64,000 nt of DNA from Rhodobiaceae bacterium (GCA_965224185.1 OZ245042.1:5146761-5210760); one strand, 5' to 3'; positions 14,873-35,535 are shown, counted from the stretch's first letter. Notes: generated from the letters alone by a model not told the origin. A program made the numbers and translations.

Positions 14873-14891
14873 GGTACGACTCCTGTTTCTA

Positions 14892-16789: not shown

Positions 16790-16803
16790 CGGATCAACTC
16801 TCG

Positions 16804-17565: not shown

Positions 17566-17722
17566 CGGAGGGCCCTCCATACCTTGGTGACCGATCTGGA
17601 AGCGTTTTGAGATTGGGTTGGCGCGCAACCCAATTTCGAAGCGCTGCGGAATTGGCGCCCCGGAAACGTGACTGGTTTAAATCTGCACGAATTGTCCGGG
17701 GCGCCTGCGCTCTGCTTGGGAG

Positions 17723-18733: not shown

Positions 18734-18770
18734 GGTATCCTCCTAAAGTTGACGGCGCAGTCCGGATCGA

Positions 18771-18958
18771 TGGGATCCCAATTCCCGGGAAGTTCATTTA
18801 AACCCGCAGGGTCGACTCCATCCCTTCATATTTAATACCGTTTTGGGATCCCATATCAAGCTAAAGTTTGAAATCTGAGCACGAATTTGTCGATTCGGTG
18901 CTCTTTCGGATACAAAGTGAATGCATATATTATTGCATAACTTGACTTTGGGATCCCA
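18771..18958. promoter_or_regulatory. Three copies of the palindrome TGGGATCCCA in the dctP/gntR divergent promoter region
   Basis: Exact TGGGATCCCA at 18771-18780, 18844-18853 and 18949-18958. The last copy is preceded by ATGCAtatattatTGCATaa. Candidate GntR operator sites. Confidence 0.6.
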
Positions 18959-18976
18959 TGCGTGATCAATAACCGG

Positions 18977-19735: not shown

Positions 19736-19791
19736 CGCCGAACCAGTTTCCAGATTGGGCGCGAAATTCAACAGGCCCCAAGTGACATTTG

Positions 19792-21090
19792 CTACCGCAT
19801 TAAGTTGGGAAGCCAAGTTGCGATTTCCGGAATCGCGAATAATAGCAGCAAGCCCGCGAGCATCGAGAAAATGAACGGTGTCACGCCGATAAACATTTTG
19901 GCGAGATCAACGTCGCTGACAACCGCTTTGACCGTGAAAACGTTCATACCGATCGGTGGGGTGATCAGCCCTAGTTCGACAACCAGGATAATGATTATCC
20001 CGAACCAGATCATGTCCACGTCCAGCGCGCTCAGCGAAGGCAGGAAAACCGGCACGACCAGCAGCAAGATCCCAAGGGATTCAAAGATCATCCCCAAGAG
20101 AACGCAGACGAAGCAGATCCCGAGTACCAACTGAATAGCGGAAATGGCGCCTTCGCCCTGAACCAACTCAACAAGCTCAAAAGGCATGCCGGTAATATTG
20201 ATGAACTGAGCCAGCATCATACCGCAAATCACAATGGTAAAAATCATTGCTGTGGTTTTGACGGTATCCAAAAAGACATGCAGGAGTTCAGGCCAATTGC
20301 GCAAACGACCCCGGGAAACGGCGAAAATAAAGGCGAAGAACGCGCCGACTGCCGCCGATTCCGTTGGGGTAAAAATACCTGTGTATATGCCCCCGAGGAC
20401 CAGGGCGAACAGCAATACGATCGGCCAGGATGCTCTTGAGGCGCGAAGCTTCTCCGCCCAGGTCGTCGCTTCACCGGGAGGGCCCGAATTGGGAAACAGG
20501 CGTACAACGACCGCTATGCCAACGAGGAACAATGAGACCAGCATGAGGCCAGGAACGATCCCCGCGATGAAGAGCTTTCCGATATCCTCTCCCACGATGA
20601 TCCCGTAGATCACCATCGGCACCGATGGTGGGATCATGATACCAAGCGTGCCGCCCGCGGCGATTGTACCGGTCGACAACGCATCATTATAACCAAAGCG
20701 CCGCATCGGGGGCATGGCGACCCGGCTCATGGTTGCAGCGGTGGCCAATGACGATCCGCTAACTGCTGCAAAACCGGCGCAAGCGAAAACGGTGGCCATC
20801 GCAACCCCGCCCTTTAACCGGCCCAGCCAAGCATAGGATGCCTCGTATAGCTCGTCGGAAATTCCTGCCCTGTGTATGAATGTCCCCATCAGAATGAACA
20901 GCGGAACGACAGACAGGCCGAGATTCATGGTCATCTCGATGATCCATTGGCCGGTAACCGCAATGGAGGCATCGATGCCGCGATATGCAGCAAATCCCAC
21001 GACACCGACAACAAGTGTCGCATACCCCAACGGCACGCCGATAAAGCTGAGAACCAGTACGATCGCCAGTCCGATGAGTGCCTCCGCCAT
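19792..21090 (-). CDS. dctM: TRAP transporter large permease
   Basis: ORF 19792..21273. The true start is probably ATG 21090 (MAEALIGLAIVLVL...), just after the dctQ stop at 21099. The sequence is DctM-like throughout. Confidence 0.9.
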   Translation of the reverse strand: MAEALIGLAIVLVLSFIGVPLGYATLVVGVVGFAAYRGIDASIAVTGQWIIEMTMNLGLSVVPLFILMGTFIHRAGISDELYEASYAWLGRLKGGVAMATVFACAGFAAVSGSSLATAATMSRVAMPPMRRFGYNDALSTGTIAAGGTLGIMIPPSVPMVIYGIIVGEDIGKLFIAGIVPGLMLVSLFLVGIAVVVRLFPNSGPPGEATTWAEKLRASRASWPIVLLFALVLGGIYTGIFTPTESAAVGAFFAFIFAVSRGRLRNWPELLHVFLDTVKTTAMIFTIVICGMMLAQFINITGMPFELVELVQGEGAISAIQLVLGICFVCVLLGMIFESLGILLLVVPVFLPSLSALDVDMIWFGIIIILVVELGLITPPIGMNVFTVKAVVSDVDLAKMFIGVTPFIFSMLAGLLLLFAIPEIATWLPNLMR

Positions 21091-21098
21091 GACGATCT

Positions 21099-21584
21099 CT
21101 AGTCCGCTGATCCGTGGCTGGTCGGTCCTTTGGTGAACACTCTGATACCCGCCACCAACGAGAAAGCGACCAGGACGACGAGCGCGGATATGATCCAGAC
21201 AAACGGGATTTCGAGACCTTCGGTGGCGTCTTCGTAGATAAACGAATCCCTGGCCGCCACGATCAGCACCCACAACAGGAAACCTGTTCCAAGCGTATTG
21301 CTGATCGCATAGATCAGGACGTAGAGTTTCGGTGAGAACTGATTGATAATCGGCTCAAATATCGAAACGACGATATGGCTGCCGTCGCGACTGACAAGGA
21401 TGAAGCCGGCAAAAACCGTCAGCGTCAGTAGGATTTGCGTTAATTCCGCGCTTCCCGATACCGGGGCGGAAAACACATAGCGCATGAACACGTCGACGAC
21501 GGTCAGCAGCATCATCAAGGCGAGCAATACCGACCCGACAATCAGTGCGACGCGACTGATCAAGCCCACGACCTTGTCAAACAT
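21099..21584 (-). CDS. dctQ: TRAP transporter small permease
   Basis: 161-aa protein with four TM segments, placed between dctP and dctM. Confidence 0.8.
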   Translation of the reverse strand: MFDKVVGLISRVALIVGSVLLALMMLLTVVDVFMRYVFSAPVSGSAELTQILLTLTVFAGFILVSRDGSHIVVSIFEPIINQFSPKLYVLIYAISNTLGTGFLLWVLIVAARDSFIYEDATEGLEIPFVWIISALVVLVAFSLVAGIRVFTKGPTSHGSAD

Positions 21585-21647
21585 CGTCTGCCTTTTCGAA
21601 TGTGAAACGGGCCAGGCTCCCGCTGCTAGAAACCTGGCCAGCCCGCA

Positions 21648-22691
21648 TCAATTGGCGTTGATCTTGCTCAGACGCTCGACTTCTGAGCGCATGAAGTCCA
21701 GCGCGGCCTGACCATCGACGCCCATACCGTCGACCTTGGCAATCCAGTCTTTGGCAATCGATTGCGAGTTCTCTTTGAGACTTGCCATCAACGCGTCCGA
21801 CGGCGGGTGGTACTTGACTGTTTTGGCAAGCTTGTCACGGCCTTTCAGGGCCTGTTGGTTCACCTTTACCCCGACCATGCGCGCCAGGTGCTCTCCCGAC
21901 AGGTCGGTCAGGACCTTTTGGTCCTCTGGTGACAGGCTGTTCCACGTCCTTGCATTGATGAAGTGGGTGAAATTGATCGAGAACAGCGACTTTTCAAACT
22001 GTATGCAGGACTTCGTGTAGCTGTCGATCTTGAACTGTAGAATGGAATCGTAAGTGATCCCGGTATAGGCCTCTACGACATTGCGCGAGACGATTTCGTG
22101 GATCTGGACGGCCGGACCGGTCACGGTCGCGACACCCATTTTCTTCAGGATCTTGTCCAGGTTCCCCTTGAGTGACCAGACCTTGCGGGTGGTCAGATCG
22201 TCCGCCGATGCGATCTGCCCATCCGTCAGCGAACACAGTGCTCCGCCCGCGAAATGGTACATGCCCAGAAGGTGGACACCCCGCCATTTTTCAGTGTCCG
22301 CAAAGAACTTCTGATAGGTGTTCCATAGCGCGACCGATGTCGCCTCGGAGTCCCCCTGATGCACCCAAGGCATCATGCCCACATGCGCACCGGGATTCTT
22401 CGGGCTAAGATAGATATTGGCGATGAAGCCGGCATCCGCCGCACCCTTGCGAACGGCGTCCATAACCTTCGGCGGCGGCGCAACCGATTTGGGCGTGAAC
22501 TCGATCGTGAGGCGGCCTTCGGATTTTTTGTGTACTTGATCGGCCCAATCGTTCATCACTTCCCAATAGAAGTGGCTGGGCGGAACGAAAATATTGAACA
22601 GAATTTTCGTTTTCGCAGCGGCCGAAAGCGGCGTCAGCAACGCGCAAGCCAACCCTGCCAGCGCCGCGTTTTTAAAGAACTTCAGGGGCAT
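21648..22691 (-). CDS. dctP: TRAP transporter substrate-binding protein (DctP family)
   Basis: 347 aa with signal peptide MPLKFFKNAALAGLACALLTPLSAAA and an SD ggaggag upstream. Confidence 0.85.
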   Translation of the reverse strand: MPLKFFKNAALAGLACALLTPLSAAAKTKILFNIFVPPSHFYWEVMNDWADQVHKKSEGRLTIEFTPKSVAPPPKVMDAVRKGAADAGFIANIYLSPKNPGAHVGMMPWVHQGDSEATSVALWNTYQKFFADTEKWRGVHLLGMYHFAGGALCSLTDGQIASADDLTTRKVWSLKGNLDKILKKMGVATVTGPAVQIHEIVSRNVVEAYTGITYDSILQFKIDSYTKSCIQFEKSLFSINFTHFINARTWNSLSPEDQKVLTDLSGEHLARMVGVKVNQQALKGRDKLAKTVKYHPPSDALMASLKENSQSIAKDWIAKVDGMGVDGQAALDFMRSEVERLSKINAN

Positions 22692-22735
22692 TTCTTCTCC
22701 TCCAATAGTCAGTTTCCAGGTCGGGTTGCGCGCGG

Positions 22736-24373
22736 TCAGGCCGTGTTTGACGGCTTGCGCGTCGGCAGGATTTCGGGGTTCTTGCCCGCCGCATCAGTTT
22801 CATCCCAGTATCCAATGAGCACGCCCAATTGCTCTTCCATGCCGGTCATCTGGAGATTGTGTTCTTCCGACCAGGTCTCGCGCTGACGATACTGCAGTGA
22901 CCACTCGGCGAGGCGATCGAACATTGACCGGCGGATGTCGGCATGGTCCGGACTACATCCAAGATCGACCAATTCGCCGGGATCACGGACCAGATCGAAC
23001 AGCACCGGCGGATACCCCGGCGCGTATATGTATTTCCATTCCTGGGTGGCGATCATGTACGAACGGCAGTCGAGCGGCATCCGTCCGGTCTCGGGCCGGA
23101 AGACCTGGCATGAATAGTCGTATTCGCTGATGGCGAAGTCCCGCCACTCGGTGTCCTCGCCCCGAAGCTTTGGCAATAGAGAGCGCCCGTCCAGGATGTT
23201 TTTGGCCACCGACCCTCCTTGGTATTCAATAAAGGTCGGGAGCAAATCAATCGACTCGACCAGGGAATCGTCGACTGTTCCACGTGTTCCGTCAGCGGAT
23301 GCACTCGGGTCGACGATGATCAGGGGGATTTTTACGGCGGGGTCGTGGAAGTAGTCTTTGTCGCCCATCCAATGGTCGCCGAGATAGTCGCCGTGGTCGG
23401 ACGTGAAAACGATCAAGGTGTCATCAAACAATCCACGCTCGCGCATAAATTCAAACAAGATCCCGAGCTGATCGTCGATTTGGGAAATCAGCCCCATATA
23501 AACAGGAATGACGGTTTCCCGAGCTATTTCCTTGCCGAAGGTCTTTCCTGCGACCCGGCTCATGAAATGCCGGACAAGCGGATTCGGATCGACCAACTCT
23601 CCGTCGGATTTGACGGCCGGGATAACGTCGCCCGCTGAATACATGTCATTGTATGGCGCTGGCGCGATATAAGGCCAATGCGGCTTGATGTAGGACAGAT
23701 GAAGCAGCCATGGCGTCTGGCCGCCGTCCTGGCTAAGGAAATCCATCGCCCGCCTCGTCATATAGGGCGTCTCCGAATCGTCCTCGCAGACCCTGGCGGG
23801 CAAATTGGCCTGATCGTTGAAGAATCCCGACCGAACCTGCCGACCGGTATCGACCGCGTTGGCAGCCCAATGCCACGGATTGTCGTCTTCGGTATGTCCC
23901 TTGGACTTCAGGTATTCGTTATATGCCAGATTGGGGCGAACCATCGTATCGGGGTGCACACCGTCGTCGCGCTCGAAAGCCTCAAATCCGGCTTGGGAAT
24001 GATGAACTCCGATGTAACTGTCGGGATCGACACCAAGTCTTTCCATTCCCTCTTTATCAGCAACCATGTGCGTTTTGCCGACCAAAACAGTACGCACCCC
24101 AAGCGGGTTAAGGTGGTGTCCAATATTTTTTTCACCGATGCGCAGTGGCGTGAAGTTGGAGGTCGCTCCATGCGAGGATACATAGCGACCGGTATAGGTG
24201 CTCATCCGCGACGGGCCGCAAATTGGTGACTGGCAATAGGCATTGCTGAACCGCACGCCGCGCGCCGCCAGCGCGTCGATGTTGGGGGTCTTTATCGTTG
24301 GATGTCCACTGCAACCCAGATAGTCAAACCTCAGTTGATCGCACATGATGAACAGAATGTTTTTGCGCGCCAT
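22736..24373 (-). CDS. Type I (formylglycine) sulfatase-family hydrolase, phosphonate-monoester-hydrolase (PMH)-like, cytoplasmic
   Basis: NILFIMCDQLR, the signature C-G-P-S-R (C-x-P-x-R) in SPICGPSRMSTYTG, and later LHLSYIKPHWPYIAPAPY, TSDHGDYLGDH and LFDLVRDPGE. The overall pattern resembles Rhizobium PMH as I remember it. No signal peptide. Confidence 0.8.
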   Translation of the reverse strand: MARKNILFIMCDQLRFDYLGCSGHPTIKTPNIDALAARGVRFSNAYCQSPICGPSRMSTYTGRYVSSHGATSNFTPLRIGEKNIGHHLNPLGVRTVLVGKTHMVADKEGMERLGVDPDSYIGVHHSQAGFEAFERDDGVHPDTMVRPNLAYNEYLKSKGHTEDDNPWHWAANAVDTGRQVRSGFFNDQANLPARVCEDDSETPYMTRRAMDFLSQDGGQTPWLLHLSYIKPHWPYIAPAPYNDMYSAGDVIPAVKSDGELVDPNPLVRHFMSRVAGKTFGKEIARETVIPVYMGLISQIDDQLGILFEFMRERGLFDDTLIVFTSDHGDYLGDHWMGDKDYFHDPAVKIPLIIVDPSASADGTRGTVDDSLVESIDLLPTFIEYQGGSVAKNILDGRSLLPKLRGEDTEWRDFAISEYDYSCQVFRPETGRMPLDCRSYMIATQEWKYIYAPGYPPVLFDLVRDPGELVDLGCSPDHADIRRSMFDRLAEWSLQYRQRETWSEEHNLQMTGMEEQLGVLIGYWDETDAAGKNPEILPTRKPSNTA

Positions 24374-24660
24374 TGGACTATCACCGCTCAGAACATTTGT
24401 TTTACTTGTGCTTTACCACCCAATTTGAGCGGCACGTACATGTAGGGCCACTGCTGACCATTCGCACTTTGAGGCCAGAACGTTCTGGAAAATTCGAGTT
24501 GGTGCAGGGGTCATCTGCATGCCGCTATATCCTCCCTTTGAGCTCCCGAACGGGACAGCCGTCAATCCGCGGCTCGCGCTCTATTTGTTCAAAATTGAAT
24601 TCGCAGCCGAGAACCCGAGCCCATCTTCTGAATGAAGTAGGCAGGCACATATTGCATAAA

Positions 24661-24731
24661 TGGGATCCCAAAACAATTGAATTCTGTATGTAATCCAAAA
24701 ATCCTCGATAAATCTTGATTTTGGGATCCCG
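24661..24731. promoter_or_regulatory. Two further copies of the TGGGATCCC(A/G) palindrome in the sulfatase/MBL-sulfatase divergent promoter region
   Basis: TGGGATCCCA at 24661-24670, preceded by attgcataaa as at 18931-18940. TGGGATCCCG at 24722-24731. Confidence 0.6.
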
Positions 24732-24867
24732 TTTATGTCACGTTACACGCAACACTAAGAAATATGCCAGCCATGGGACACGTGAGTTCAGGCTCACTGT
24801 TGGCCAAGCCAAGTGTGGCCAGTTTGGTTGCAAGCCCAAGCGCTTATACTTGGAGGAGAAGCCGCAA

Positions 24868-26145
24868 ATGCACCCGGAACTGAAATCCCATCCCGACTAC
24901 TTTCAAAAGGAAGTGGTTCAGCTTGCAGACAACGTCTACATGGCTTTCGGCTATGCGGCATCGAATGTGTTCATGATCAAAGGAGACGACGGGATCATCA
25001 TCGTCGACACGGCTGAGACGACCAGTGCCGCCGAAAACATCCTGTCGGAGTTCCGCAAGATCACCAATCTTCCAGTGAAAACCATCATCTACACCCATTC
25101 GCACCGCGACCACGTATCCGGCGCAAGTGTCTTTGCCGAAGGCGGAGCGCCTGAGGTATTGGCGAGTACCAGATTTTCCGACGATTCTCTGTTCGTCGCC
25201 TCTGAACATCCGTTACCGACCAAGGCGATGCAGGTGCGCACCAAGCGGCAGTTCGGCATCGGACTGTCCTATCCGGACGAGATCATCGGCATCGGCGTGG
25301 GTCCGGGTGACCGGCCCTTGGCCGGCATGGGCGCCGGTGCGTTGTCCCCGACCCGTCGGATAGGTGACGAGGGTGAAAGCATATCCATCTGCGGCGAAGA
25401 CCTGCAACTGGTCATGGCCCCCGGCGAGACCCCCGATCACATGGTCGTCTGGTATCCGAAAAAGAGAGTGCTGTTCTCAGGCGATAATTTTTACCGTTCC
25501 TTCCCGAATCTCTATGCCATTCGCGGCACGGCATACCGGGATTTTGATGCCTGGGCCGATACGATGGATCAGCTCATGGCCTTTGAACCGGAGGTTCTGG
25601 CCCCCGGCCACACAAAAGCGATCATTGGCGCGAACCAGATCAAGGAGGTGCTGACCGATTACCGCGACGCCATTCGCCATGTCGTCGATGAAACACGCTA
25701 TGGCATGGACGCCGGGCTGACCATCGACCAATTGGCACACTGCGTCAAACTGCCGGAGGAACTGGCTGCCAAACCCCATCTGCGCGAATATTACGGCCGG
25801 GTTGACTATGCGGTGCGCGCCTATTTCGTCGGCACAATGGGCTGGTTTGACGGCAATCCGACATCGCTGGCCTCACTCGCCCCGGATGACGAGGCCAATC
25901 GGTTTATTGAGATGGCCGGTGGCGCGGATGCGGTATTTGAGGCGGCGGCGAAAGCCCGAAACAACGGGGAATATCAATGGGCGCTGCAATTGATCGACCG
26001 TTTGATCTATTCCGATGGAAACGCGGCGCGGGCAATTGCAATGAAAGCAAAAGTCCTGAACGACTATGCGCAGGGCCAAATCAACTGCCCGACGCGCCAC
26101 TATTACCTGCAATGCGCAAAAGAGCTGTCAGCCTCCGGGCGCTAA
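24868..26145 (+). CDS. MBL-fold alkyl/aryl-sulfatase-like protein (type III sulfatase; MBL plus dimerisation domain, no SCP2 tail)
   Basis: THSHRDH metal motif and an alkyl-sulfatase dimerisation-domain-like region (YYGRVDYAVRAYFVGTMGWFDGNPTSL...GEYQWALQLIDRLIY). The ATG at 24868 follows ggaggag. The protein ends right after the dimerisation region. Confidence 0.75.
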   Translation: MHPELKSHPDYFQKEVVQLADNVYMAFGYAASNVFMIKGDDGIIIVDTAETTSAAENILSEFRKITNLPVKTIIYTHSHRDHVSGASVFAEGGAPEVLASTRFSDDSLFVASEHPLPTKAMQVRTKRQFGIGLSYPDEIIGIGVGPGDRPLAGMGAGALSPTRRIGDEGESISICGEDLQLVMAPGETPDHMVVWYPKKRVLFSGDNFYRSFPNLYAIRGTAYRDFDAWADTMDQLMAFEPEVLAPGHTKAIIGANQIKEVLTDYRDAIRHVVDETRYGMDAGLTIDQLAHCVKLPEELAAKPHLREYYGRVDYAVRAYFVGTMGWFDGNPTSLASLAPDDEANRFIEMAGGADAVFEAAAKARNNGEYQWALQLIDRLIYSDGNAARAIAMKAKVLNDYAQGQINCPTRHYYLQCAKELSASGR

Positions 26146-26319
26146 CGGACACTTTTGTCCTTTCAGAGGCGACGGGTGCATCGCCCCTTGCGTTCCAGCT
26201 TACGCTGCACGCAGCGGATTGGTACCGGCAGGTCCGAGCCAAGTCGCCGGGAATCCGCACACTATTGGAAATGCCCGGGCAGGTCGCGACCGGGCCGACC
26301 ATTCGTTTCGGCCGGAACT

Positions 26320-27504
26320 CTACCCGTCCTTGATATCACCCGCGCAGATCGTGTTCAGGCTGTGCGCAGCGTCGCCTTGGAAGATGTCTTCGGGGTGTTT
26401 GGCTTCGACGAGAACGAGATCGCCGCGTTTGCCTGTCGCAATTGTGCCGATTTCGGCGGCCGCGCCAAGGGCCTCGGCGGCGTTGGTGGTTATCGCCCGT
26501 ACCGCCTCAACCGGCGTCAGGCCGTATCGTGTGATGCCGAGCCGGGCAGCCGAAACGATGTTGAGATCACCCGTAGCGTCGGGACCGGCTTCCGTGGAGA
26601 TCGCTATCTTCACCCCCGATGCACGCATATCGTCGATCAGCGGCATTTGGCTGTCCTGGTCACGGATGGCAATCTGTGGGACGAGCACCGCGACACCACC
26701 GCTCGAAGCGATCGCGGCGACGCTCAGCGCATCGGATCGACACAGGAATGTTGCCGCTTGCGAGTTGAACGAGGCGGGCAGGGTCGCGCCGGCTGAATCT
26801 GAAAACCGATCGCAAGCAACGCGCGTCGGCGTTTTCTTCCTGTAAAACAGCTCAAGGACCGCGCTCGCCTGATCAAGGTCCAGGCCGGCCGCGTCATCGC
26901 AAAACACCTCCACGGCATCACACGCGCCGTGCTCATAGGTCTTCGGCATGAGGCCGGCCTCGATATCGGCGAGATGGTCGTCCGGGTCCCGATCCCGGGC
27001 AATGAAATGACCGGCAAACAGGGTGACCCGCGACAGGTTGGGCATTTCCGCCTGAAGCCTGCGGCACACAAGCGCGAGCCGGAATTCGTCCCGCGGCGTC
27101 CGGCCGAAGCCGGACTTCAGTTCGAACGCGGTAACGCCGCTTCGTGCCAATTTCGCAAGGCGCCGGCGCATGGATGCAAGCAGATTTTGGTCGTCAGCCG
27201 CGCTGGTCGCGGTCGCAACGGCTTGAACGAAGTCACGATAGTCCTGCGCCGACAGGCGCTCCGGCGCATCGACCCCAGGCGCCCAACATACGGTATTGTG
27301 ACAGGCGACGAAGCCGGGCAGGGCAAGCCGGCCGTCCATGGATGTCGCGTCGGCCAGATCACCGGCGAAGCCGGTCCTCGGTCCGGCATAGGCAATCAGA
27401 CCATCGCTGATTTCGACAACCGCATCCTCGATCAGTCCACAGGGATCGTCGGCGACCGGAACCATGGTCGCTAGATTCAGGTTTGTCAGAACCAGGTTGC
27501 CCAT
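26320..27504 (-). CDS. hutI: HutI-like (imidazolonepropionase-related) amidohydrolase of cmu clusters
   Basis: Amidohydrolase-fold N-terminus (IEDAVVEISDGLIAYAGP...LPGFVACHNT). Its position after paaE matches published cmu clusters. The start is ATG 27504. Confidence 0.7.
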   Translation of the reverse strand: MGNLVLTNLNLATMVPVADDPCGLIEDAVVEISDGLIAYAGPRTGFAGDLADATSMDGRLALPGFVACHNTVCWAPGVDAPERLSAQDYRDFVQAVATATSAADDQNLLASMRRRLAKLARSGVTAFELKSGFGRTPRDEFRLALVCRRLQAEMPNLSRVTLFAGHFIARDRDPDDHLADIEAGLMPKTYEHGACDAVEVFCDDAAGLDLDQASAVLELFYRKKTPTRVACDRFSDSAGATLPASFNSQAATFLCRSDALSVAAIASSGGVAVLVPQIAIRDQDSQMPLIDDMRASGVKIAISTEAGPDATGDLNIVSAARLGITRYGLTPVEAVRAITTNAAEALGAAAEIGTIATGKRGDLVLVEAKHPEDIFQGDAAHSLNTICAGDIKDG

Positions 27505-27515
27505 TGCGATCGCGC

Positions 27516-28598
27516 TCAAAGCTCGTCGAAATCGATGCGGACATGACGCGATGTCGGCTGCGCCAGGCAAGCCAGCACCAGTCCGTCCTCAAGGTCACAT
27601 TCCCGCAACGTCTTCAAAACCCCCGACCGCACCAGTGCCGTGCCGTAAGTGAGCTTGGCGATACAAGACGAACAGTCCCCTTCCTGGCAGGAAAACGGCA
27701 CATCGGCATCGATGCGCAGCAGAGCCTCGAGGATGGATTCTCCGTCTTTAGGTGCAACGTGGTTCTCTTCGCCGTTCATAACGGCCGTGATCTGTCGGCA
27801 TGATCCTTCCTCGCCGGGCGCCTTGGACACCACCGGGATAGGCGGGCCGTCATCGTCGTCGTTCAAGACAAGGTCAAAGCTTTCCCTGCGAATGTCGCGG
27901 TTGCCGAGACCAAATCCCATCAGTACCGATTCCGCTACATCCATGAACGGCTCAGGGCCGCACAGATAGGCACTCATGGGCAGGTTGCCGCGTCTCGCCC
28001 ATACCGGCAGGCGATCCTCAAGATATGTTCTGTCGACGCGCCCGCGGGAACCGGCCCAATCTGCGCCAACGCGCGAAAACACATGTTCGATCTCGGCCAG
28101 GGGGTGATCGCACAATGCCTCCAGATCGTCGCGGAGAACGACATGGTCGGGCGTGCGATTGCCACAGACAAGGGTAATCACCTGGTCGGGCCCCGCATCG
28201 AGCAGGCTCCTTGCGATGGGGATCATCGGCGCAACGCCGCTCCCGGCCGCCAGCAACAATGTATGACGTGGTTCCTCCGGAGGCTTGAAAAACACGCCGC
28301 GTGGCGGGGCAACCTGCAGAACATCACCGACCACCGTCTGATCGACGAGCCATGATGACATTCTGCCCTCCGGCACCTTCTTTGCCGTAATCCGAAAGCC
28401 CGCGGCCCGATCCGGGCTTGAGCTTATCGAATATTGCCGCAACAGAACCTCACCGCGAATTTCCTGTTCAATCGTAATGAATTGCCCGGCGCGGTGAGAA
28501 AACGTGGTGTCGAGGTCCCGCGGGACGTCAAACCACAGGCTCGCCGCATCGCGCCCCTCGGCCTGCTTTGCAGTGATTGTCAACGGATAGGTCGCCAT
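27516..28598 (-). CDS. paaE: PaaE-like ferredoxin:NAD(P)H oxidoreductase (FNR-like plus plant-type 2Fe-2S)
   Basis: RQYSISS FAD motif, AAGSGVAPM NAD-binding motif, and a C-terminal C-x4-C-x2-C (FSCQEGDCSSC) with a later Cys. The start is ATG 28598. Confidence 0.85.
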   Translation of the reverse strand: MATYPLTITAKQAEGRDAASLWFDVPRDLDTTFSHRAGQFITIEQEIRGEVLLRQYSISSSPDRAAGFRITAKKVPEGRMSSWLVDQTVVGDVLQVAPPRGVFFKPPEEPRHTLLLAAGSGVAPMIPIARSLLDAGPDQVITLVCGNRTPDHVVLRDDLEALCDHPLAEIEHVFSRVGADWAGSRGRVDRTYLEDRLPVWARRGNLPMSAYLCGPEPFMDVAESVLMGFGLGNRDIRRESFDLVLNDDDDGPPIPVVSKAPGEEGSCRQITAVMNGEENHVAPKDGESILEALLRIDADVPFSCQEGDCSSCIAKLTYGTALVRSGVLKTLRECDLEDGLVLACLAQPTSRHVRIDFDEL

Positions 28599-28605
28599 CC
28601 GGGGC

Positions 28606-28896
28606 TCAATCCTCCTCTGCGCCGCGCGCCGCGCGAATTTGCTTGGCAAAGGGATTGGGCCGGCTCAGTTTGACATGGCATCGGCAGGGATAGTCGTGAC
28701 CGCAAGTCTTGGCCTTGGGAGTCGCGTCCTTATCCGGCTTGGCGCCGGTGAGGATGTTGACCGCCATCACGGGCGCCACGCGCATGGTGCCGCCGCATGC
28801 GGTGCAGGCCAGTTCAAGGTCTCGCGATTCCTCGAACCCGATGGAAGCTTCGCGGCTGCGGCCGCAGTCTTCACAGCGAAAATCGTATCGTGGCAT
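28606..28896 (-). CDS. fmdB: FmdB-family zinc-ribbon protein
   Basis: MPRYDFRCEDCG...CTACGG is a CxxC...CxxC zinc ribbon of the FmdB/CxxC_CxxC_SSSS type. Confidence 0.75.
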   Translation of the reverse strand: MPRYDFRCEDCGRSREASIGFEESRDLELACTACGGTMRVAPVMAVNILTGAKPDKDATPKAKTCGHDYPCRCHVKLSRPNPFAKQIRAARGAEED

Positions 28897-28960
28897 CAGT
28901 TAACTCGAAGGCATTGCCGGCCCACGCCGGGCGTGGGCCGGCAAGGCGTCGATCGAAGCT

Positions 28961-30817
28961 CTAAGCCGCCGCTTGGCCCAGATGCTCCTTGACCAACGCC
29001 ACCGCCGCATTGGCGTCAAGGCCGTAAGCAACGCCCATCTCGGAGGCGATACCCCGATTGGCGGCGGCACCGCCGCAGATCAGCAGGAACCGGTCGCTCT
29101 TGCCTTGCTCTTCCAGCAAATCCTTGACCTTTTTGACATAGACCGCCGAGGAATTGGTCATGACCGACATGCCGATCGCCACGGCGTCTTCCTTTTCCGC
29201 CGTCTCGACGAACTGCTCGGGCTTCACGTTCTTGCCAAGATCGATGACATTGAACCCGCTCGCCTTCAGCATCAGGCAGACCAGGTTCTTGCCGATGTCC
29301 TGAGTGTTGCCGCGCACCAGGCCGACCACCACGGTGCCTGTCGGCCCTTCGTTGTCGCCCGAGGCTTCCAGCAGCGGGGTGAGAATGGGCATCGCTTTAT
29401 CCATGGTCTTGGCGGCCTTGAGCATGTCGGTCACAAATCGCTCATTGCGCTCATACATGTCGCCGACGATCTTCATGCCGAGCGACAGTCCACCGAACAC
29501 GATCTCCTGGGCGTTCATGCCGCGGTCGAGACCCGTCTTGGTCCATTCGATCGCCTTGTCGCCGTCATATTCCATGATCGCCTCGACAAGCTTTTGATTG
29601 ACCTCATCGGCGGGTGTGGAGTCCGTCGATTCACTTTTGGCCCACAGCTTCCGCATCTGTTCGTCGCCTTCGGTCGACGGTGCGCGCTTGCCGGGATGGT
29701 TGGGATGTCCGGCGAGATAGATGTTCGACAGATCGCCCAGTGCCGCCACATCCATCGGATATTTGATCTCCGCGCATTGCTGGATCATGGCGTGCATGTT
29801 TTCGTCGGGAATGTTCCAGTCGATGTCACAACCCGGCATGACGATCATTCCGCCGTTATAGCCAACCTCGGCGGCCAGTTTCTTGACCTCGTTGCGCACG
29901 TCCTCCGGCGAGCCGTGCATCAACGTGGAAAACGGCGACAGCGTTCCCATCAGGGAAATCTCGCCACCGATCGCCTGTTTGGCCTTATCCATGCCCGGAT
30001 ACATATCGCCGTTGAAATTGCAGCACCCGTTTTGCGATATGTCGCGCCAAATGGGCTGGGTGAACGTGCATGTGTGGGTGAACGCGGCACCCTTCAGCTC
30101 CTCGTTGATATATTTGAACAGCCGTTTCTGATAGGGCAGGCCGTGCTTGCGGTAGACGTCCGGCGGCAAGATGTCGGTCGAGTTGAACGGATCAAGAATG
30201 TTGGTGGCGTCGAGCCCCGCCTCGAACATCATCCGACACACATTTTTGACGATATCGAGCGCGAGTTCGGTTACCTCGTCCGCATAGTCCGGATCCTCAT
30301 TCAGATAGGTCAGAAACTCCGACGATCCGGTCATCAACTGGGCCGTGGTGATCGGCCCGCCGACGGGTGTTGGTATGGCGTGGGTGTCCTTGTAGCCGAG
30401 TTCGATGAACGTGCGGATTTCCTTTTGAATCTCCAGCAACCGGGCGGAGGGTTGAAAGCCCTCGCGCTCATACTTTTCCTTGAAGCGGTAAAAAGCCTCC
30501 TTGGTGGGCGTCGGGTGCCTGACCAGCGAGGGTTGGGCGTAAGGCAGGTAGTCGAGCTCGCAGCCGTCGACGCACTCCACGGGGGTAAACAGATCTGTGC
30601 CGGCAATGATGGCATCGCCGCCGAATTTCTTCTCCGCCTTGGCCTTGGCATGTGCCGAAGCCACACCGTCGCGCAGTGCCTGGTCGACCGTGATGCCGCC
30701 CTCGCGAATCCCCCGCGTCATCAACAGCGGCACCACCGGAACCTGGTCGGGCAGCCCCTGCATGAGACACGCGGTAAAGAACCGTTCACGCCCGGTCATT
30801 TTTTCAATCTGTGCCAT
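28961..30817 (-). CDS. cmuA: CmuA-type bifunctional methyltransferase I / corrinoid-binding protein
   Basis: 618 aa. The N-terminal MtaA/URO-D-like methyltransferase carries an H-x-C zinc motif (FTHTC) and a downstream Cys (MPGCD). The C-terminal B12-binding domain reads VVVGLVRGNTQDIGKN...GMSVMTNS...LICGGAA. Size and fusion architecture match CmuA. Confidence 0.85.
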   Translation of the reverse strand: MAQIEKMTGRERFFTACLMQGLPDQVPVVPLLMTRGIREGGITVDQALRDGVASAHAKAKAEKKFGGDAIIAGTDLFTPVECVDGCELDYLPYAQPSLVRHPTPTKEAFYRFKEKYEREGFQPSARLLEIQKEIRTFIELGYKDTHAIPTPVGGPITTAQLMTGSSEFLTYLNEDPDYADEVTELALDIVKNVCRMMFEAGLDATNILDPFNSTDILPPDVYRKHGLPYQKRLFKYINEELKGAAFTHTCTFTQPIWRDISQNGCCNFNGDMYPGMDKAKQAIGGEISLMGTLSPFSTLMHGSPEDVRNEVKKLAAEVGYNGGMIVMPGCDIDWNIPDENMHAMIQQCAEIKYPMDVAALGDLSNIYLAGHPNHPGKRAPSTEGDEQMRKLWAKSESTDSTPADEVNQKLVEAIMEYDGDKAIEWTKTGLDRGMNAQEIVFGGLSLGMKIVGDMYERNERFVTDMLKAAKTMDKAMPILTPLLEASGDNEGPTGTVVVGLVRGNTQDIGKNLVCLMLKASGFNVIDLGKNVKPEQFVETAEKEDAVAIGMSVMTNSSAVYVKKVKDLLEEQGKSDRFLLICGGAAANRGIASEMGVAYGLDANAAVALVKEHLGQAAA

Positions 30818-30849
30818 TTTCTCCTCCTGGCTAGGGCAACCAAGTTGCT

Positions 30850-32106
30850 TCAGTTGTGGCCGTTTCCGGCTCTGGATTCCGATGGTAATGCGCCGCCGGC
30901 GCGGCGTGTGGACCGCAATGGGCGCGCAATGACGGCGACGTCGGGATGGTCTCCGATGATTTCAGGGGCCGGGCTGTCGGCCGCGGCGACCAGCTTGTCG
31001 ACAATCGCCCGCGTGGGGCCGATATCGGCGAGCGCCTTGATGTCGTCGAGATCGAGCGTCTTTGCCATTTTGGCTCCCAGGGCGCATTCCTCGACACAGA
31101 TGGGCTCACTGATATTGTCCGGCGGCGCGGCAATCGATGGACCGGCCATCGCAAGATCGGCGGCGAATCGCGCAATGGCGCCCCGATCGCCCCGCTTGGC
31201 GGCGGCGCCGAGCGCAATCAAGTCGACCGGTCCATGCAGGATCATGTCGCCAGGCACTTCGCGGCGGATAACGTCCAGTTCCATGCCCTTGGCATAAAAG
31301 TCCAGATTGAGGATCTCGACGCCGAGATCCGCCAGATCGGGAAGAATGGACCGCACGCCGCCACATGAATGCATGCAGATCGCGGCGTCCGTGTGCTTGC
31401 GGATTCGCGAAATCAGGGTTTTCAACCGCGGGTGAAGAAAGTTGCGAAAATCCGTATCCGACAGGTACATGCCGCCTTGAAATCCAAGATCGTCGCCGTA
31501 AACGACGATGTCAGGCTGCTCCGGAAGCGCTGTGAGCATGTGCTCGTAAGCGGCGGTGATCACATCAAGCGCCCAGTCGAGAAGCGCATTTGCAATCCGC
31601 CAGTCTCCGGTGACGTCATCGAGGAATTGCCAGCCGTTGCGCAGCGCGAAGCACGTGTCCAACAGGCCGGGACAAGGGGCATCGGCAACAACGAGCAGGC
31701 TGCCGCTATCGGTTGCCACCTGTAACTTCGACGACAATTCCGGGCGGGGATATCGGGAGATTTCCGGCCAGCCGGCATGTTCGAGCGGATGAGACAATTG
31801 CGCCGGATAGCCATCCGCCCAAAGCCATACGACGCCGTACGCGTCCTTGAAATTGTGCTCCTCATCGCCATCCGGGCGGGGATAGAGCAGGCCAACACGC
31901 TGACAGTCGGAGCCGAGCGCACTGCATTCCCGTGCGCTGAGCGGCAGGGTTTCATACACCGGATGGGCAACATGCTTCAGGATCGGCATTCCATGACACG
32001 CGCGTAAGCGTATTCCCGTGAGCGATGATGTGCCGACATCGACGATGAGCCGCTCCCCGGCCAGCGCGTCGATGCGCGGCTTCCATCCATGTCCGTTGGT
32101 TTTCAT
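30850..32106 (-). CDS. cmuC: CmuC-like URO-D/MtaA-family methyltransferase
   Basis: 418 aa, URO-D-like (YGDDLGFQGG, ICMHSCGG H-x-C motif). The start overlaps the cmuB stop (ATGA). Confidence 0.7.
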   Translation of the reverse strand: MKTNGHGWKPRIDALAGERLIVDVGTSSLTGIRLRACHGMPILKHVAHPVYETLPLSARECSALGSDCQRVGLLYPRPDGDEEHNFKDAYGVVWLWADGYPAQLSHPLEHAGWPEISRYPRPELSSKLQVATDSGSLLVVADAPCPGLLDTCFALRNGWQFLDDVTGDWRIANALLDWALDVITAAYEHMLTALPEQPDIVVYGDDLGFQGGMYLSDTDFRNFLHPRLKTLISRIRKHTDAAICMHSCGGVRSILPDLADLGVEILNLDFYAKGMELDVIRREVPGDMILHGPVDLIALGAAAKRGDRGAIARFAADLAMAGPSIAAPPDNISEPICVEECALGAKMAKTLDLDDIKALADIGPTRAIVDKLVAAADSPAPEIIGDHPDVAVIARPLRSTRRAGGALPSESRAGNGHN

Positions 32107-33008
32107 GCCGAAGCCAACTTGAACATTTTCAAGAGCGAATGCCCCTCTGGTAAGGTGTGCCCATCAAGTTCCTGGGCCGCGAAGCCGAGAAACGTCTCCA
32201 CCGATCCGAGCGCGTGGGCCGCCAGCCTTGCCTTTTCGATGATGCCGTAGTGGAGGAAGTCGCCGCCAAAGCAGCGGCAGGCCGCCAACGCGGCGCCCAG
32301 CGACACGTTGACCCATTCACGTCCCAGCCTGTCGAGCCCCGTCCATTGCGGGAACGCATTGGAAAATGCGCACCCGGCCGGATATCCGAACCGTTCGCGT
32401 ACCCCCTCGATACCGCGCATTGCCAAGCCGATGGACGGCGCGTCCATGACACCCAGGTCGACAATCGGGACGTCGCACCCGATCTCTTGGAGTATTGGAT
32501 GAAAGTGGCTGTCGATCATGGCGCATGCCCCCTCGGCCGAGAGGTCGGAAATGTCGTTGGCCAAGATCATTATGCCGGCCGGCTTGTACCGTCCGAGTGC
32601 CTCGATCTCCTCGTCTTCGGTGTCTTCGGTGAGCGAGGCAAAGACCGAGCGGTCCAGGATCTTCAGTTCCGCCGCCTTTTTGAGGCCGGCGATGCGAACA
32701 TCCGCTTCCGTGGCGTTGATGAAAATCGGCAAGGTGGTGCGTTCCGCCACGAATGGCAGTGACGTGGCGATGGCCGCCTCCGTGGCGCCGATCACATCGA
32801 AGGCCATTTGAACACCATATGTTTCGGCAAGCCCGTTCACCCGTTCAATCAGCGCCGCCGCACGAGCCCGATCGAACGTGCCCTCAAACGGGTCTTCGAT
32901 AATGGAGTGGTTGTCGTAGAAGATGCTGCCGACGGCCCAGCCCGTATGCGATCCCAACGGTCCACCGATTGTGGCGTCACCGATTTTCACGAACTTTGGA
33001 TCGGCCAT
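32103..33008 (-). CDS. cmuB: CmuB-like methylcobalamin:tetrahydrofolate methyltransferase (MtrH family)
   Basis: About 300 aa with an MtrH-like pattern (IGG.LG....WAVGSIFY, FDVIGAT, PIFINAT). It is the first gene of the operon, with an SD gaggagg before ATG 33008. The track start at 33011 is a GTG. Confidence 0.75.
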   Translation of the reverse strand: MADPKFVKIGDATIGGPLGSHTGWAVGSIFYDNHSIIEDPFEGTFDRARAAALIERVNGLAETYGVQMAFDVIGATEAAIATSLPFVAERTTLPIFINATEADVRIAGLKKAAELKILDRSVFASLTEDTEDEEIEALGRYKPAGIMILANDISDLSAEGACAMIDSHFHPILQEIGCDVPIVDLGVMDAPSIGLAMRGIEGVRERFGYPAGCAFSNAFPQWTGLDRLGREWVNVSLGAALAACRCFGGDFLHYGIIEKARLAAHALGSVETFLGFAAQELDGHTLPEGHSLLKMFKLASA

Positions 33009-33035
33009 CACTCCTCCTCTCGCCCTTGCCTCCGT

Positions 33036-33080: not shown

Positions 33081-33102
33081 TTAGACAGACAGGTCTGTCT
33101 AA
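33081..33102. promoter_or_regulatory. Perfect 22-bp palindrome TTAGACAGAC-AG-GTCTGTCTAA (candidate TetR operator)
   Basis: 10-bp perfect inverted arms with a 2-nt spacer, centred in the 135-bp cmuB/tetR divergent intergenic region. Confidence 0.55.
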
Positions 33103-33143: not shown

Positions 33144-33845
33144 TTGAATGTCGCGGACCAATATTGCTATAGGGACGAAACCTTGGCGGACCGATTTGAC
33201 GGTCGGCCGAGCCTAGAGAAACGAAGTCGTGGGTTGCGAACCGTGCCTGACACAGCGGGAAAACGTCAAAAAGCCGATAAAGCGGATGCGAAAAACCGCA
33301 TCCTGAACGCGGCTTATGACCTGTTTGCAACCCAGGGCGTGGCCCAGGTGGGGGTCGACAAGGTCATCGCCAAATCCGGCTGCGCCAAGGCGAGCCTCTA
33401 CAATCAGTTCGGTTCCAAGCAGGGATTGGCGATCGCATTTCTGGAACGCCGGGAGGAATTGTGGACGAAGGGCTGGCTGGAAGCGGAACTCCTGGCGCGG
33501 TCGAAGGAGCCGACTGAACGCCTGCTCTCGGTGTTCGACATCTTTGACGAATGGTTCCGCCGCACCGATTTTGAAGGCTGTGCATTTATCAATGTGCTGC
33601 TCGAAACGGAGCGCAACAGCCCGATCAACCGCTCGGCCGCCGAACATCTCGGCAATATTCGTGCGATTCTGCGTGAATTGGCCGAGCAGGCGACGCTCGA
33701 CGATATCGATGCATTCTGTCAGATCTGGCATATGCTGATGAAAGGCTCCATCATCGCCGCCGGCGAAGGCCACCGTTCCGCCGCGCGCGACGCAAAAAGA
33801 GCGGCGCATTTGATCCTCGACAATTGGCCGCGCGCCGAGAGGTGA
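33144..33845 (+). CDS. TetR/AcrR family transcriptional regulator
   Basis: HTH ILNAAYDLFATQGVAQVGVDKVIAKSGCAKASLYNQFGSKQGL. The start is uncertain: TTG 33144 in the track, or an in-frame GTG at 33243 that gives about 200 aa. Confidence 0.85.
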   Translation: MNVADQYCYRDETLADRFDGRPSLEKRSRGLRTVPDTAGKRQKADKADAKNRILNAAYDLFATQGVAQVGVDKVIAKSGCAKASLYNQFGSKQGLAIAFLERREELWTKGWLEAELLARSKEPTERLLSVFDIFDEWFRRTDFEGCAFINVLLETERNSPINRSAAEHLGNIRAILRELAEQATLDDIDAFCQIWHMLMKGSIIAAGEGHRSAARDAKRAAHLILDNWPRAER

Positions 33846-33954
33846 CGAGCAGCGGTTCGCAGCCTCAAGATTGGTCAAGCGGCGCGTTGCGATCGTCCAT
33901 CGGCAAATCTACTTGTCTTTGCCGCCATTGCCTGATTGTTTGCCGTTGAATCAA

Positions 33955-34893
33955 ATGAAGATCAGCATGAGCGCACAAGACGGACATCCGCATTTGAATA
34001 TTATCGATCGGGCTTTGGCGGCGACCAGCGCCCGGCCGCGTTTGACGATGTTCGTTGTCGTCGGATTATGCGCGGTGGTTGGTTGGACATATTTCGCCGC
34101 CATGGTGGCGCAGATGGCCGAGAACGTGGACCCGCGTGTATTTGGCCCGGGCATGTCATTGTTGTCCGGCCTGTTCGATGCCGCGCCCCGCGTGGCCGAC
34201 CACACGGCCATCCACGGCAATTCCGGCATTCTCGCCATGCCGGCGCTCGGTCCGTGGGGCCCGCGCGACCTGGGCCTGGTGCTGTTGATGTGGACCATGA
34301 TGGCCTGCGCCATGATGATGCCCACGGCGGCGCCGATGCTGTCGACATACGCGGATATCGCCGATACGGCGGCCAAAGGCGGCAAGCATGCGGTGTCGGT
34401 GGTGGTGCTCGCCGCCGGCTATCTCGTTGTGTGGCTCGGTTTTGCCGTGGTCGCCACGCTGCTGCAATGGGGCCTGACGGAATTGCGGCTGATGTCGCCG
34501 CTGATGGAGCCGGTCGCCGAAGTGTTCGCCGGCACGACGATGGTCGCCGCCGGCATCTACCAGTTCACGCCGGCCAAGGCGGCCTGCCTGACGCGCTGCC
34601 AGCGCCCGTTCCCGTACTTTTTCAGCCGCTGGACCGATCGGACGGCCGGTGTCTTTCGGCTGGGTTTGGAGCAGGGCCTCTTCTGCCTCGGCTGCTGTTG
34701 GGCGCTGATGATCGTCATGTTCGCGGTCGGCGTCATGAATGTGGTCGCCATTGCCGTGCTGACGCTGATCATGGCGATCGAAAAGACCGTGCCGCTGCGC
34801 TGGGTGTCGCACGGCGTGGGCGTTCTGTTCCTGGCGGGTGGGGCGCTGATTTTGGTGTTTTCCGAACCCGGACGCACCCTGTGCGGCTTCTGA
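33955..34893 (+). CDS. DUF2182 predicted metal-binding membrane protein
   Basis: Polytopic membrane protein with LLMWTMMACAMMMPTAAPML and C-terminal GLEQGLFCLGCCWALM motifs. The start is ATG 33955 or 33967. Confidence 0.7.
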   Translation: MKISMSAQDGHPHLNIIDRALAATSARPRLTMFVVVGLCAVVGWTYFAAMVAQMAENVDPRVFGPGMSLLSGLFDAAPRVADHTAIHGNSGILAMPALGPWGPRDLGLVLLMWTMMACAMMMPTAAPMLSTYADIADTAAKGGKHAVSVVVLAAGYLVVWLGFAVVATLLQWGLTELRLMSPLMEPVAEVFAGTTMVAAGIYQFTPAKAACLTRCQRPFPYFFSRWTDRTAGVFRLGLEQGLFCLGCCWALMIVMFAVGVMNVVAIAVLTLIMAIEKTVPLRWVSHGVGVLFLAGGALILVFSEPGRTLCGF

Positions 34894-34920
34894 GTTTGTT
34901 ATCGAGTGGGAGGAAATGTC

Positions 34921-35535
34921 GTGGCCAATGAGCCTTGGAAATTGACCGGAGAATTGGTGTTGTCGTGCAATTGCACGGTGTTTTGTCCCTGCGTCATCTC
35001 GCTCGGCGACCACCCGCCGACGGAAGGCTATTGCCAGACTTGGGCCGGGATCCGGATCGAGGAGGGGCATTTCGGTGACGTCGATCTGTCCGACATCAAT
35101 ATGGGATTGGTCATGGAAATCCCCGGCCTGATGAGCCGCGGCAACTGGTCGGCCGGCGTGTTCATCGACGACAATGCCTCCATCTACGCGGTCAAGGCAT
35201 TGACCAAAATCTTTTCCGGACGGGCTGGCGGCACGACCGGTCTCCTAAGCATTCTGGTCGGCAATTTCCTTGGCGTGCGCCAGGCGCCGATCACCTACGA
35301 AATCAGGGACAAGACGCGGATCTTCCAGATACCGAAGATTATCGACGGAGCAGTGACGCCCATTGCCGCAAAGGACCGGGACGGCGACGTTGTGATATCC
35401 AATTCGCAATACTGGATTGCGCCGGATATAATCGTCTGCAAGTCGGACAAGAGCCGCATGCGCGCATTCGGCCGCAATTGGAACTTCGCCGGCCGGTCAG
35501 CGGAATTGTGCCGTCTTGACTGGGCAGGTCCGTAG
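34921..35535 (+). CDS. DUF1326 domain protein
   Basis: WKLTGELVLSCNCTVFCPCV is the Cys-rich N-terminus typical of DUF1326. GTG 34921 follows gggagga. It is the usual genomic partner of DUF2182. Confidence 0.7.
   Translation: MANEPWKLTGELVLSCNCTVFCPCVISLGDHPPTEGYCQTWAGIRIEEGHFGDVDLSDINMGLVMEIPGLMSRGNWSAGVFIDDNASIYAVKALTKIFSGRAGGTTGLLSILVGNFLGVRQAPITYEIRDKTRIFQIPKIIDGAVTPIAAKDRDGDVVISNSQYWIAPDIIVCKSDKSRMRAFGRNWNFAGRSAELCRLDWAGP

Follow-up and report, generated by a model that had tools for sequence, protein, structure and literature searches.

A probable cmuBCA-type methyl halide utilisation operon with a divergent tetR gene on the chromosome of a marine alphaproteobacterium

Introduction

Chlorine and bromine from natural sources reach the stratosphere mainly as methyl chloride and methyl bromide, and of the aerobic sinks for these compounds only the bacterial cmu genes are, to our knowledge, well understood. 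Among the closest described clusters is that of Hyphomicrobium sp. MC1 and H. chloromethanicum CM2, in which the genes are ordered cmuB-cmuC-cmuA-fmdB-paaE-hutI-metF2-purU-folD, and the MC1 copy was cloned as pJM105 (KT950741.1). The pJM105 plasmid gave Methylorubrum extorquens AM1 growth on chloromethane; metF2 was the sole accessory gene essential for this growth in AM1, where the housekeeping metF was no substitute for it and where purU and folD were not essential (PMC4949252). Deletions of fmdB, paaE and hutI each caused a 25-47% fitness loss on chloromethane (PMC4949252). In M. extorquens CM4 the cmu genes lie scattered through 138 kb, and cells grown on chloromethane contain more of the PaaE-like protein, for which a role in re-reduction of the corrinoid has been proposed (PMC3621897). 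As of 2017 the regulators of the cmu genes were stated to "remain to be identified" (PMC5585157). Here we describe a 64-kb stretch of DNA, hereafter the window, from a Rhodobiaceae bacterium (GCA_965224185.1 OZ245042.1:5146761-5210760), whose region 26320-33011 is, with high probability, a bona fide operon for chloromethane/methyl halide utilisation (cmu), belonging to the common cmuBCA type and located on the chromosome of a marine alphaproteobacterium.

Organisation of the gene cluster and identity of CmuA

The open reading frames (ORFs) of the window were called and the encoded proteins were scanned with Pfam and NCBIfam profiles. Six intact, consecutive ORFs with short gaps between them were found on the minus strand at 26320-33011, and the gene content, order, strand and extent given in a first-pass annotation of this DNA, made from the sequence alone, were correct to the base. 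The cmuB gene (32103-33011) encodes a predicted methylcobalamin:tetrahydrofolate (H4folate) methyltransferase of the MtrH family, with 152 bits to Pfam MtrH and 359 bits to NCBIfam NF002142 (cutoff 287); from the sequence and the alignment of homologues, its start is probably ATG 33008, directly after the ribosome-binding site GAGGAGGAG. The cmuC gene (30850-32106) encodes a divergent protein resembling uroporphyrinogen decarboxylase (URO-D) and the second methyltransferase (MT2) of corrinoid systems, with a weak URO-D match of 35 bits and a weak mtaA_cmuA match, in which the H-S-C motif is kept and the third cysteine of CmuA is not. The stop of cmuB and the start of cmuC have an ATGA in common at 32103-32106, an overlap already described and plainly visible in the sequence. 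The fmdB-like gene (28606-28896) follows cmuA and encodes a CxxC zinc-ribbon protein of 96 aa (Zn_ribbon_8, TIGR02605). The next ORF (27516-28649) encodes a PaaE-like NAD(P)H:FAD:[2Fe-2S] oxidoreductase with FAD_binding_6, NAD_binding_1 and Fer2 domains, and the last (26320-27570) a HutI-like protein of the amidohydrolase fold (Amidohydro_1), for which TIGR01224 is the nearest model. Homologue alignment set the start of paaE at ATG 28598 (27516-28598, 360 aa) and that of the hutI-like gene at ATG 27504 (26320-27504, 394 aa), by which the apparent overlaps of 44 and 55 nt disappear and that of cmuB and cmuC is the only one left. All seven genes, the six of the cluster and the adjoining tetR, are full length and free of frameshifts, with lengths matching those of their homologues. 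Co-oriented cmuB-cmuC-cmuA genes, followed by fmdB-paaE-hutI, are the arrangement that defines the cmuBCA-type operon.

The cmuA gene (28961-30817, minus strand) encodes a predicted chloromethane:corrinoid methyltransferase (MT1), URO-D-like and zinc-containing, which is fused to a corrinoid-binding domain. The fusion of 618 aa recognised in the first-pass annotation is borne out by the Pfam domains, namely URO-D at residues 11-349, B12-binding_2 at 407-479 and B12-binding at 495-608. The protein scored 427 bits against TIGR01463 (mtaA_cmuA, cutoff 235) and only 79-94 bits against the MtaA and MtbA models of NCBIfam. Among 5.8 billion proteins searched, 358 matching protein clusters were found; the best 120 of the 358 were inspected, and all of them have the fused architecture except P0073, a truncated entry of 567 aa without the last B12-binding domain. 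The exact window CmuA was not found on record, and the scan of genome contigs gave no identical locus. The window CmuA is 81% identical to that of Hyphomicrobium sp. MC1, 80% to those of Aminobacter ciceronei and A. lissarensis and 77% to that of M. extorquens CM4, while the top matches among those listed are from metagenome-assembled genomes (MAGs) labelled Arenicellales (90%) and Kiloniellales (89%). A position outside the CmuA clade had been named as a result that would refute the assignment. In a neighbour-joining tree of 119 homologues, built without outgroup sequences from MtaA or MtbA, the four characterised CmuA proteins delimit a clade of 51 sequences, among them the window CmuA, which is 77-81% identical to those four; the CmuA proteins of Bacillota, Desulfomonile and actinobacteria fall outside this clade. 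The assignment thus withstood this check.

The zinc motif H-x-C...C is present in the window CmuA (FTHTCTF and MPGCDID) and is the same in CM4 and other CmuA proteins. The C-terminal domain aligns with MtaC, MtmC, MttC and the B12 domain of MetH. At the site of the lower cobalt ligand it reads GNTQDIGK, as in every CmuA aligned, whereas MetH, MtaC, MtmC, MttC and 1y80 have GD(L/I/V)H(D/S)IGK; from the comparison with these five solved corrinoid domains, the histidine of the lower ligand is replaced by glutamine in CmuA. The zinc motif, together with the glutamine in place of the cobalt-coordinating histidine of DxHxxG, is what we take to be diagnostic of CmuA.

The proteins of the window were then compared by tblastn with 32 other cmu loci. 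The order cmuB-cmuC-cmuA-fmdB-paaE-hutI was found in about 15 of the 32, including those of Aminobacter ciceronei, Hyphomicrobium, Bradyrhizobium, Gemmobacter, Ruegeria, Roseovarius and Pseudonocardiaceae, and fmdB comes after cmuA in nearly all loci (38-53% identity to the window FmdB). The likeness to Hyphomicrobium and Aminobacter, which had been put forward in the first-pass annotation, agrees with the annotated pJM105 of MC1 and with the Aminobacter locus. Of the plasmids in a collection that was searched, pJM105, pJM50 and pCMU01 alone have related DNA, with 72-73% identity, and no near-identical mobile element carrying the cluster was found there. The view that few cultured bacteria are cmuA-positive is dated: at least 32 cmu loci were found in the GTDB species-representative genomes, many of them isolates, besides the 358 protein clusters, and genomes bearing cmuA are no longer rare.

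Divergent TetR regulator and intergenic structures

A gene for a TetR-family regulator (TetR_N in Pfam) lies divergent from cmuB at 33144-33845 on the plus strand. Its start is uncertain and may be TTG 33144 or the in-frame TTG 33234 or GTG 33243. A divergent tetR upstream of cmuB was detected in 12 alpha- and gammaproteobacterial loci of the same type, with 54-71% identity to the window ORF, and the window TetR was aligned with its orthologues from an Arenicellales MAG and from Aminobacter. Between the two genes, at 33081-33102 and about 90 nt upstream of cmuB, there is a candidate TetR operator, a perfect palindrome of 22 bp with 10-bp arms (TTAGACAGAC-AG-GTCTGTCTAA). The motif TAGACAG-N6-CTGTCTA, with up to two mismatches allowed, has a single match in the 64 kb (chance expectation 0.00), and it recurs 68-118 nt upstream of cmuB in twelve other loci (L001-L007, L010, L015, L016, L026 and L027). 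A promoter-like element read from the sequence on the minus strand (33131-33103), with a -35 hexamer TTGACG, a 17-nt spacer and a -10 hexamer CTTAAT, abuts the palindrome, and in the Aminobacter, Bradyrhizobium and Roseobacter-type loci the palindrome comes after a TTGCAA hexamer resembling a -35 element. The palindrome thus appears to overlap the core promoter both in the window and in these loci.

By their conserved position, the divergent tetR and the palindrome look like members of the cmu module, which the first-pass annotation overlooked, and a TetR repressor-operator switch would control the operon. In the literature that was searched, no report linking a TetR regulator with cmuA was found. 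Two more operator-like palindromes were seen in the locus of Aminobacter ciceronei (L034) at 3669-3688 and 4673-4692, TAGACAGAGTGGTCTGTTTA and TAGACAGGTCGGTATGTAGA, respectively. They flank a second TetR paralogue, adjoining an uptake operon of TonB-receptor, Peripla_BP_2 and FecCD genes and a ferric-reductase-like gene, and the same type of regulator may also control this btu-like uptake system in Aminobacter.

Two further inverted repeats were found at the cluster. A GC-rich stem-loop lies at the junction of cmuA and fmdB (28911-28947, minus strand), where the 68-nt intergenic RNA folds at -37.5 kcal/mol. Comparable hairpins are present just after cmuA in seven other loci (L004, L006, L007, L010, L016, L026 and L027), with the position kept and the sequence not. 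This hairpin is possibly an attenuator within the operon or an RNA stabiliser, and it hints at differential expression of cmuBCA and fmdB-paaE-hutI. The other is a palindrome just downstream of the hutI-like stop (26270-26303), in the convergent gap of 175 nt before the alkyl-sulfatase-like gene. There is no T-run at this palindrome; it possibly marks the end of the operon and could act as a terminator.

Accessory proteins

The HutI-like protein scored 183 bits against TIGR01224, which is under the cutoff of 298. As compared to the HutI of A. tumefaciens (2puz), its HxH is changed to H-N-T, KLHAE to VACDR with loss of the beta5 histidine, DH to TF, and TD to TE, in which the beta8 aspartate has become glutamate. 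Among 18 cmu-linked homologues from L001-L037, the beta5 histidine, the third histidine ligand of the metal, is gone in all 18 and the beta8 aspartate in 16, and two subtypes are seen at the HxH site, CH(N/A)xxxW and CHTH/CHAQ. Because of the score below cutoff and the eroded metal ligands we use the name HutI-like instead of HutI, and from these residues the cmu-linked protein is not expected to be a bona fide imidazolonepropionase. CmuC, FmdB and the HutI-like protein appear to be conserved helpers. As proposed for CM4 (PMC3621897), the PaaE-like protein likely re-reduces the corrinoid of CmuA.

Predicted mechanism and physiological role

By homology to the characterised cmu system, the N-terminal zinc domain of CmuA would transfer the methyl group of CH3Cl, and also of CH3Br and CH3I, to the Co(I) corrinoid on its own C-terminal domain with release of the halide, and CmuB would then pass this group on from methyl-Co(III) to tetrahydrofolate, with methyl-H4folate as the product. 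The PaaE-like flavin/iron-sulfur protein would most likely return accidentally oxidised Co(II) corrinoid to the active state. Transcription most likely starts from a sigma-70-type promoter upstream of cmuB, and a TetR-family repressor bound to the 22-bp palindrome over this promoter would make the operon inducible, as its conservation suggests. The assignment as a bona fide cmu operon is based on the domain architecture, the 77-81% identity of CmuA and its nesting in the characterised clade, the motifs, the gene order identical to that of pJM105 and the intact ORFs. It is also based on the tetR and palindrome at a conserved place in 12 other loci, the fitness cost of losing fmdB, paaE or hutI, and the increase of the PaaE-like protein in the chloromethane proteome.

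Several points weigh against this assignment. No metF2, folD or purU was found in the 64 kb, and metF2 is essential for chloromethane growth in both AM1 and CM4 (PMC4949252). Genes for cobalamin synthesis or uptake are likewise absent from the window. In CM4 there is neither a tetR nor the palindrome within 10 kb of cmuA, the link between TetR and its proposed operator is drawn purely from comparison of loci, and the role of the PaaE-like protein is a published suggestion (PMC3621897).

Pfam scans of the principal ORFs detected no methylenetetrahydrofolate reductase (MTHFR), FolD, PurU or FolC in the window, and MetF2, FolD, PurU and FolC2 of CM4, Aminobacter and Hyphomicrobium MC1 gave zero tblastn matches there, which bears out the earlier remark that metF, folD and purU are missing. 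In other loci (L005-L008, L010, L016, L026 and L027) a divergent MTHFR of 270-290 aa, metF2, lies directly after hutI, and this linkage is seen in Hyphomicrobium, Aminobacter, Bradyrhizobium, Gemmobacter, Roseovarius and others. In contrast, the loci with the CmuA proteins nearest to that of the window, from a Kiloniellales MAG (L001), an Arenicellales MAG (L002), a Rhizobiaceae MAG (L003) and Ruegeria sp. (L004), have no metF2, folD, purU or folC within 10 kb. The cluster had been called complete; judged from its gene content, this holds for dehalogenation to methyl-H4folate, and it does not hold, within the 64 kb, for the full pathway of methylotrophic growth. Since the linked metF2, folD and purU are absent, methyl-H4folate must pass through genes elsewhere in the genome.

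One alternative is that such a minimal cluster, without metF2, removes methyl halides by co-metabolism or scavenges methyl groups for the H4folate pool, and does not serve growth on methyl halides as sole carbon source. It is a variant of the cmu operon assignment with another physiological role, such as supply of methionine and S-adenosylmethionine or partial energy gain. The folate genes missing from the window and from the nearest loci, and the failure of the housekeeping metF to replace metF2 in AM1, speak for it. On the other hand, the window is 64 kb of a genome in which metF2, folD and purU may sit elsewhere, as the dispersal of the genes in CM4 illustrates, and purU and folD could be dispensed with in AM1. 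We regard this alternative as possible but less likely than not. We also offer, as a tentative proposal that is possible rather than probable, that TetR with TAGACAG-N6-CTGTCTA is the regulator of chloromethane-inducible cmuBCA and that the metF2-less form represents a distinct minimal marine cmu type, which would serve methyl scavenging or co-metabolic methyl halide removal and not methylotrophic growth. If the TetR module is the regulator of cmu, its absence near cmuA in CM4 would explain why the regulator went unfound there.

Genomic neighbourhood, host and horizontal transfer

The neighbours of the cluster include two TRAP transporters, glutathione S-transferases, an aldehyde dehydrogenase, a sulfatase, an alkyl-sulfatase-like protein and a PpoB2/DUF1326 pair. 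A second alternative, prompted by the sulfatase-family neighbours, is that the methyl donor is not a halide but a methyl sulfate ester, methanethiol or dimethyl sulfide, or a methoxylated compound. A formylglycine-type sulfatase (22736-24373) and the alkyl-sulfatase-like protein with a metallo-beta-lactamase (MBL) fold (24715-26145) do adjoin the cluster. However, along its whole length CmuA shares 77-81% identity with the chloromethane enzymes, and it lies inside their clade, and the sulfatase, alkyl-sulfatase, PpoB2 and DUF1326 neighbours occur in none of the 32 other cmu loci. In addition, the alkyl-sulfatase-like gene is convergent with the cluster and not co-oriented, and its product belongs to a large family of about 425 aa found mostly on contigs with no evident cmu link. 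The hint that these neighbours point to another donor is thus unsupported, their absence from the other cmu loci leaves no reason to suspect a non-halide substrate, and we consider this alternative very improbable as compared to a methyl halide.

The alkyl-sulfatase-like gene (24715-26145, plus strand) encodes an MBL and a dimerisation domain and no SCP2-like C-terminal domain, and its product spans only residues 106-516 of the 658-aa SdsA1. No remnant of the C-terminal part was found in the other frames. Disruption of the gene by an insertion was considered and rejected, since the best 120 homologues listed are two-domain proteins of 422-450 aa; the gene is complete and probably starts near 24868. 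Named members of the family occur in Ruegeria, Paracoccaceae and other Alphaproteobacteria. The sulfatase and alkyl-sulfatase-like genes are divergent, and between them (24655-24737) there is a 19-nt inverted repeat, CATAAATGGGATCCCAAAA / TTTTGGGATCCCGTTTATG, with arms that are 95% complementary and 45 nt apart, which may be the binding site of a regulator. The region 10248-26145 as a whole is an accessory-looking catabolic block, composed of an OsmC-fusion protein, a short-chain dehydrogenase/reductase, two glutathione S-transferases, the aldehyde dehydrogenase, two TRAP sets, a GntR regulator and the formylglycine-type sulfatase. Its GC content at third codon positions (GC3) is 0.64-0.74, somewhat below that of guaA, guaB and xdh (0.74-0.79). 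On the other side of the cluster, the PpoB2 (copper chaperone family) and DUF1326 pair lies at 33871-35535 on the plus strand, 26 nt after the tetR stop, and was found beside cmu in 0 of the 32 other loci. Further on, the plus-strand region 43928-57701 is a purine-catabolism block of xdhA, xdhB, xdhC, a nucleoside-type ABC transporter with a Bmp/PnrA binding protein, an OHCU decarboxylase, an adenosine deaminase and two hydrolases of the M20 peptidase family, which look like ordinary core genes.

The guaA gene is located at 7594-9141, and its product has no more than 84% identity to any named protein, those of Stappia and Pseudovibrio being the closest. The host is, to judge from GuaA, a marine alphaproteobacterium related to Stappia and Pseudovibrio. 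Because GuaA is nearest to these genera but CmuA is nearest to Arenicellales and Kiloniellales MAGs, the CmuA tree is not that of the host. At 313 nt after the guaA stop there is an ORF (9454-9987, plus strand) that is the remnant of a P4-type tyrosine integrase, with the Pfam domains Arm-DNA-bind_3 and Phage_int_M and no catalytic domain. Neither the guaA 3' end nor the region before the integrase fragment has a direct repeat (13 nt or longer) elsewhere in the window, no tRNA gene was found in the window, and no repeats flank the cmu cluster. The core genes have a GC3 of 0.74-0.79, and the range for the cmu genes, 0.68-0.78, overlaps with it. The gene neighbourhood is different in the closest GuaA relative (P0121, 90%), which therefore cannot serve as a reference for the empty site. 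The first-pass annotation had taken the stretch beginning at the decayed integrase as a sign of horizontal acquisition; the integrase remnant is real, and no attachment (att) repeat or compositional break ties the cluster to it. Elsewhere, cmu clusters lie beside transposases, beside Trb conjugation genes or on a plasmid. In the Arenicellales MAG OZ244198.1 (L033 14817-17944, CmuA 90%), Transposase_mut and IS110-family transposases come directly after the cmu cluster, which fits with clusters of this type having moved recently. Horizontal spread of the cmu module in general is well supported, as argued before (PMC4197683); for the copy in the window the evidence is indirect. That the cluster is what remains of a horizontally acquired island, decaying and no longer functional, as the truncated integrase 17 kb away and the missing H4folate-oxidation genes could be taken to mean, is the least probable reading and can be set aside, since 7 of 7 genes are full length and free of frameshifts, the catalytic motifs are intact, the operator palindrome is perfect and the GC3 is like that of host genes.

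Significance and comparison with known systems

Our results place a known cmu system in a new marine host, outside the usual Hyphomicrobium, Aminobacter, Methylorubrum and Roseobacter, and the picture of how the pathway works is unchanged by this locus. The comparison across loci gave a concrete candidate regulator of cmu expression and indicated that cmu clusters encode a "HutI" which is not an imidazolonepropionase. It also sets apart clusters with a linked metF2 from those lacking it, which matters where cmuA is used as a marker for growth on methyl halides. The parts of most note are the conserved pair of predicted repressor and operator, the type of cluster without metF2, and the HutI-like protein with its non-canonical residues.

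The cluster of Hyphomicrobium is among those most like that of the window, and the first six genes of pJM105 are in the same order and orientation as in the window. The identities to the MC1 proteins are 81% for CmuA, 65% for CmuB, 53% for PaaE, 48% for CmuC, 43% for FmdB and 34% for HutI. The Hyphomicrobium genome locus (L008) also has a divergent TetR upstream of cmuB, as in the window. The two differ in the metF2-purU-folD tail, which is present in the MC1 cluster and absent from the window, in the subtype of the HutI-like protein (CHN... in the window, CHTH in Hyphomicrobium) and in the palindrome, which is GATACAGATCTGTATC in Hyphomicrobium and TAGACAG...CTGTCTA in the window.

The methyl bromide and methyl chloride degraders Aminobacter ciceronei IMB-1 and A. 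lissarensis CC495 also share features with the window. Their genes are arranged as tetR (divergent)-cmuB-cmuC-cmuA-fmdB-paaE-hutI, CmuA is 80% identical, the HutI subtype is the same, the operator TAGTCAGACAGGTTAGTCTA is of the same motif, and a GC-rich hairpin follows cmuA in both. However, metF2 and folD come after hutI in Aminobacter and neither does so in the window, and the Aminobacter cluster adjoins Trb conjugation genes and the btu-like uptake operon with its second TetR paralogue, none of which is present in the window.

The biochemically characterised system of M. extorquens CM4, which is encoded on pCMU01, has a CmuA with 77% identity and with the same zinc motif and the same change of histidine to glutamine, and fmdB and hutI adjoin cmuA there as in the window. 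The cmuA gene of CM4 is apart from cmuB and cmuC, and its clusters include cmuC2, purU, folD, folC2 and cob genes (PMC3621897). The cmu genes are plasmid-borne in CM4 and chromosomal in the window.

The three-component methyltransferase systems, MtaABC, MtmBC/MtbA, MtgABC and the chloromethane dehalogenase Cdm of Acetobacterium dehalogenans, follow the same logic, in which the methyl group passes from MT1 to a corrinoid protein and on to MT2, and CmuB resembles them in being of the MtrH/MtgA type. In Cmu, unlike in these systems, the MT1 and the corrinoid protein are one polypeptide and the histidine of the lower ligand is glutamine. Cdm has separate MTI, corrinoid protein (CP) and MTII components and is without zinc, and CdmB groups with O-demethylases and not with CmuA (PMC13222342).

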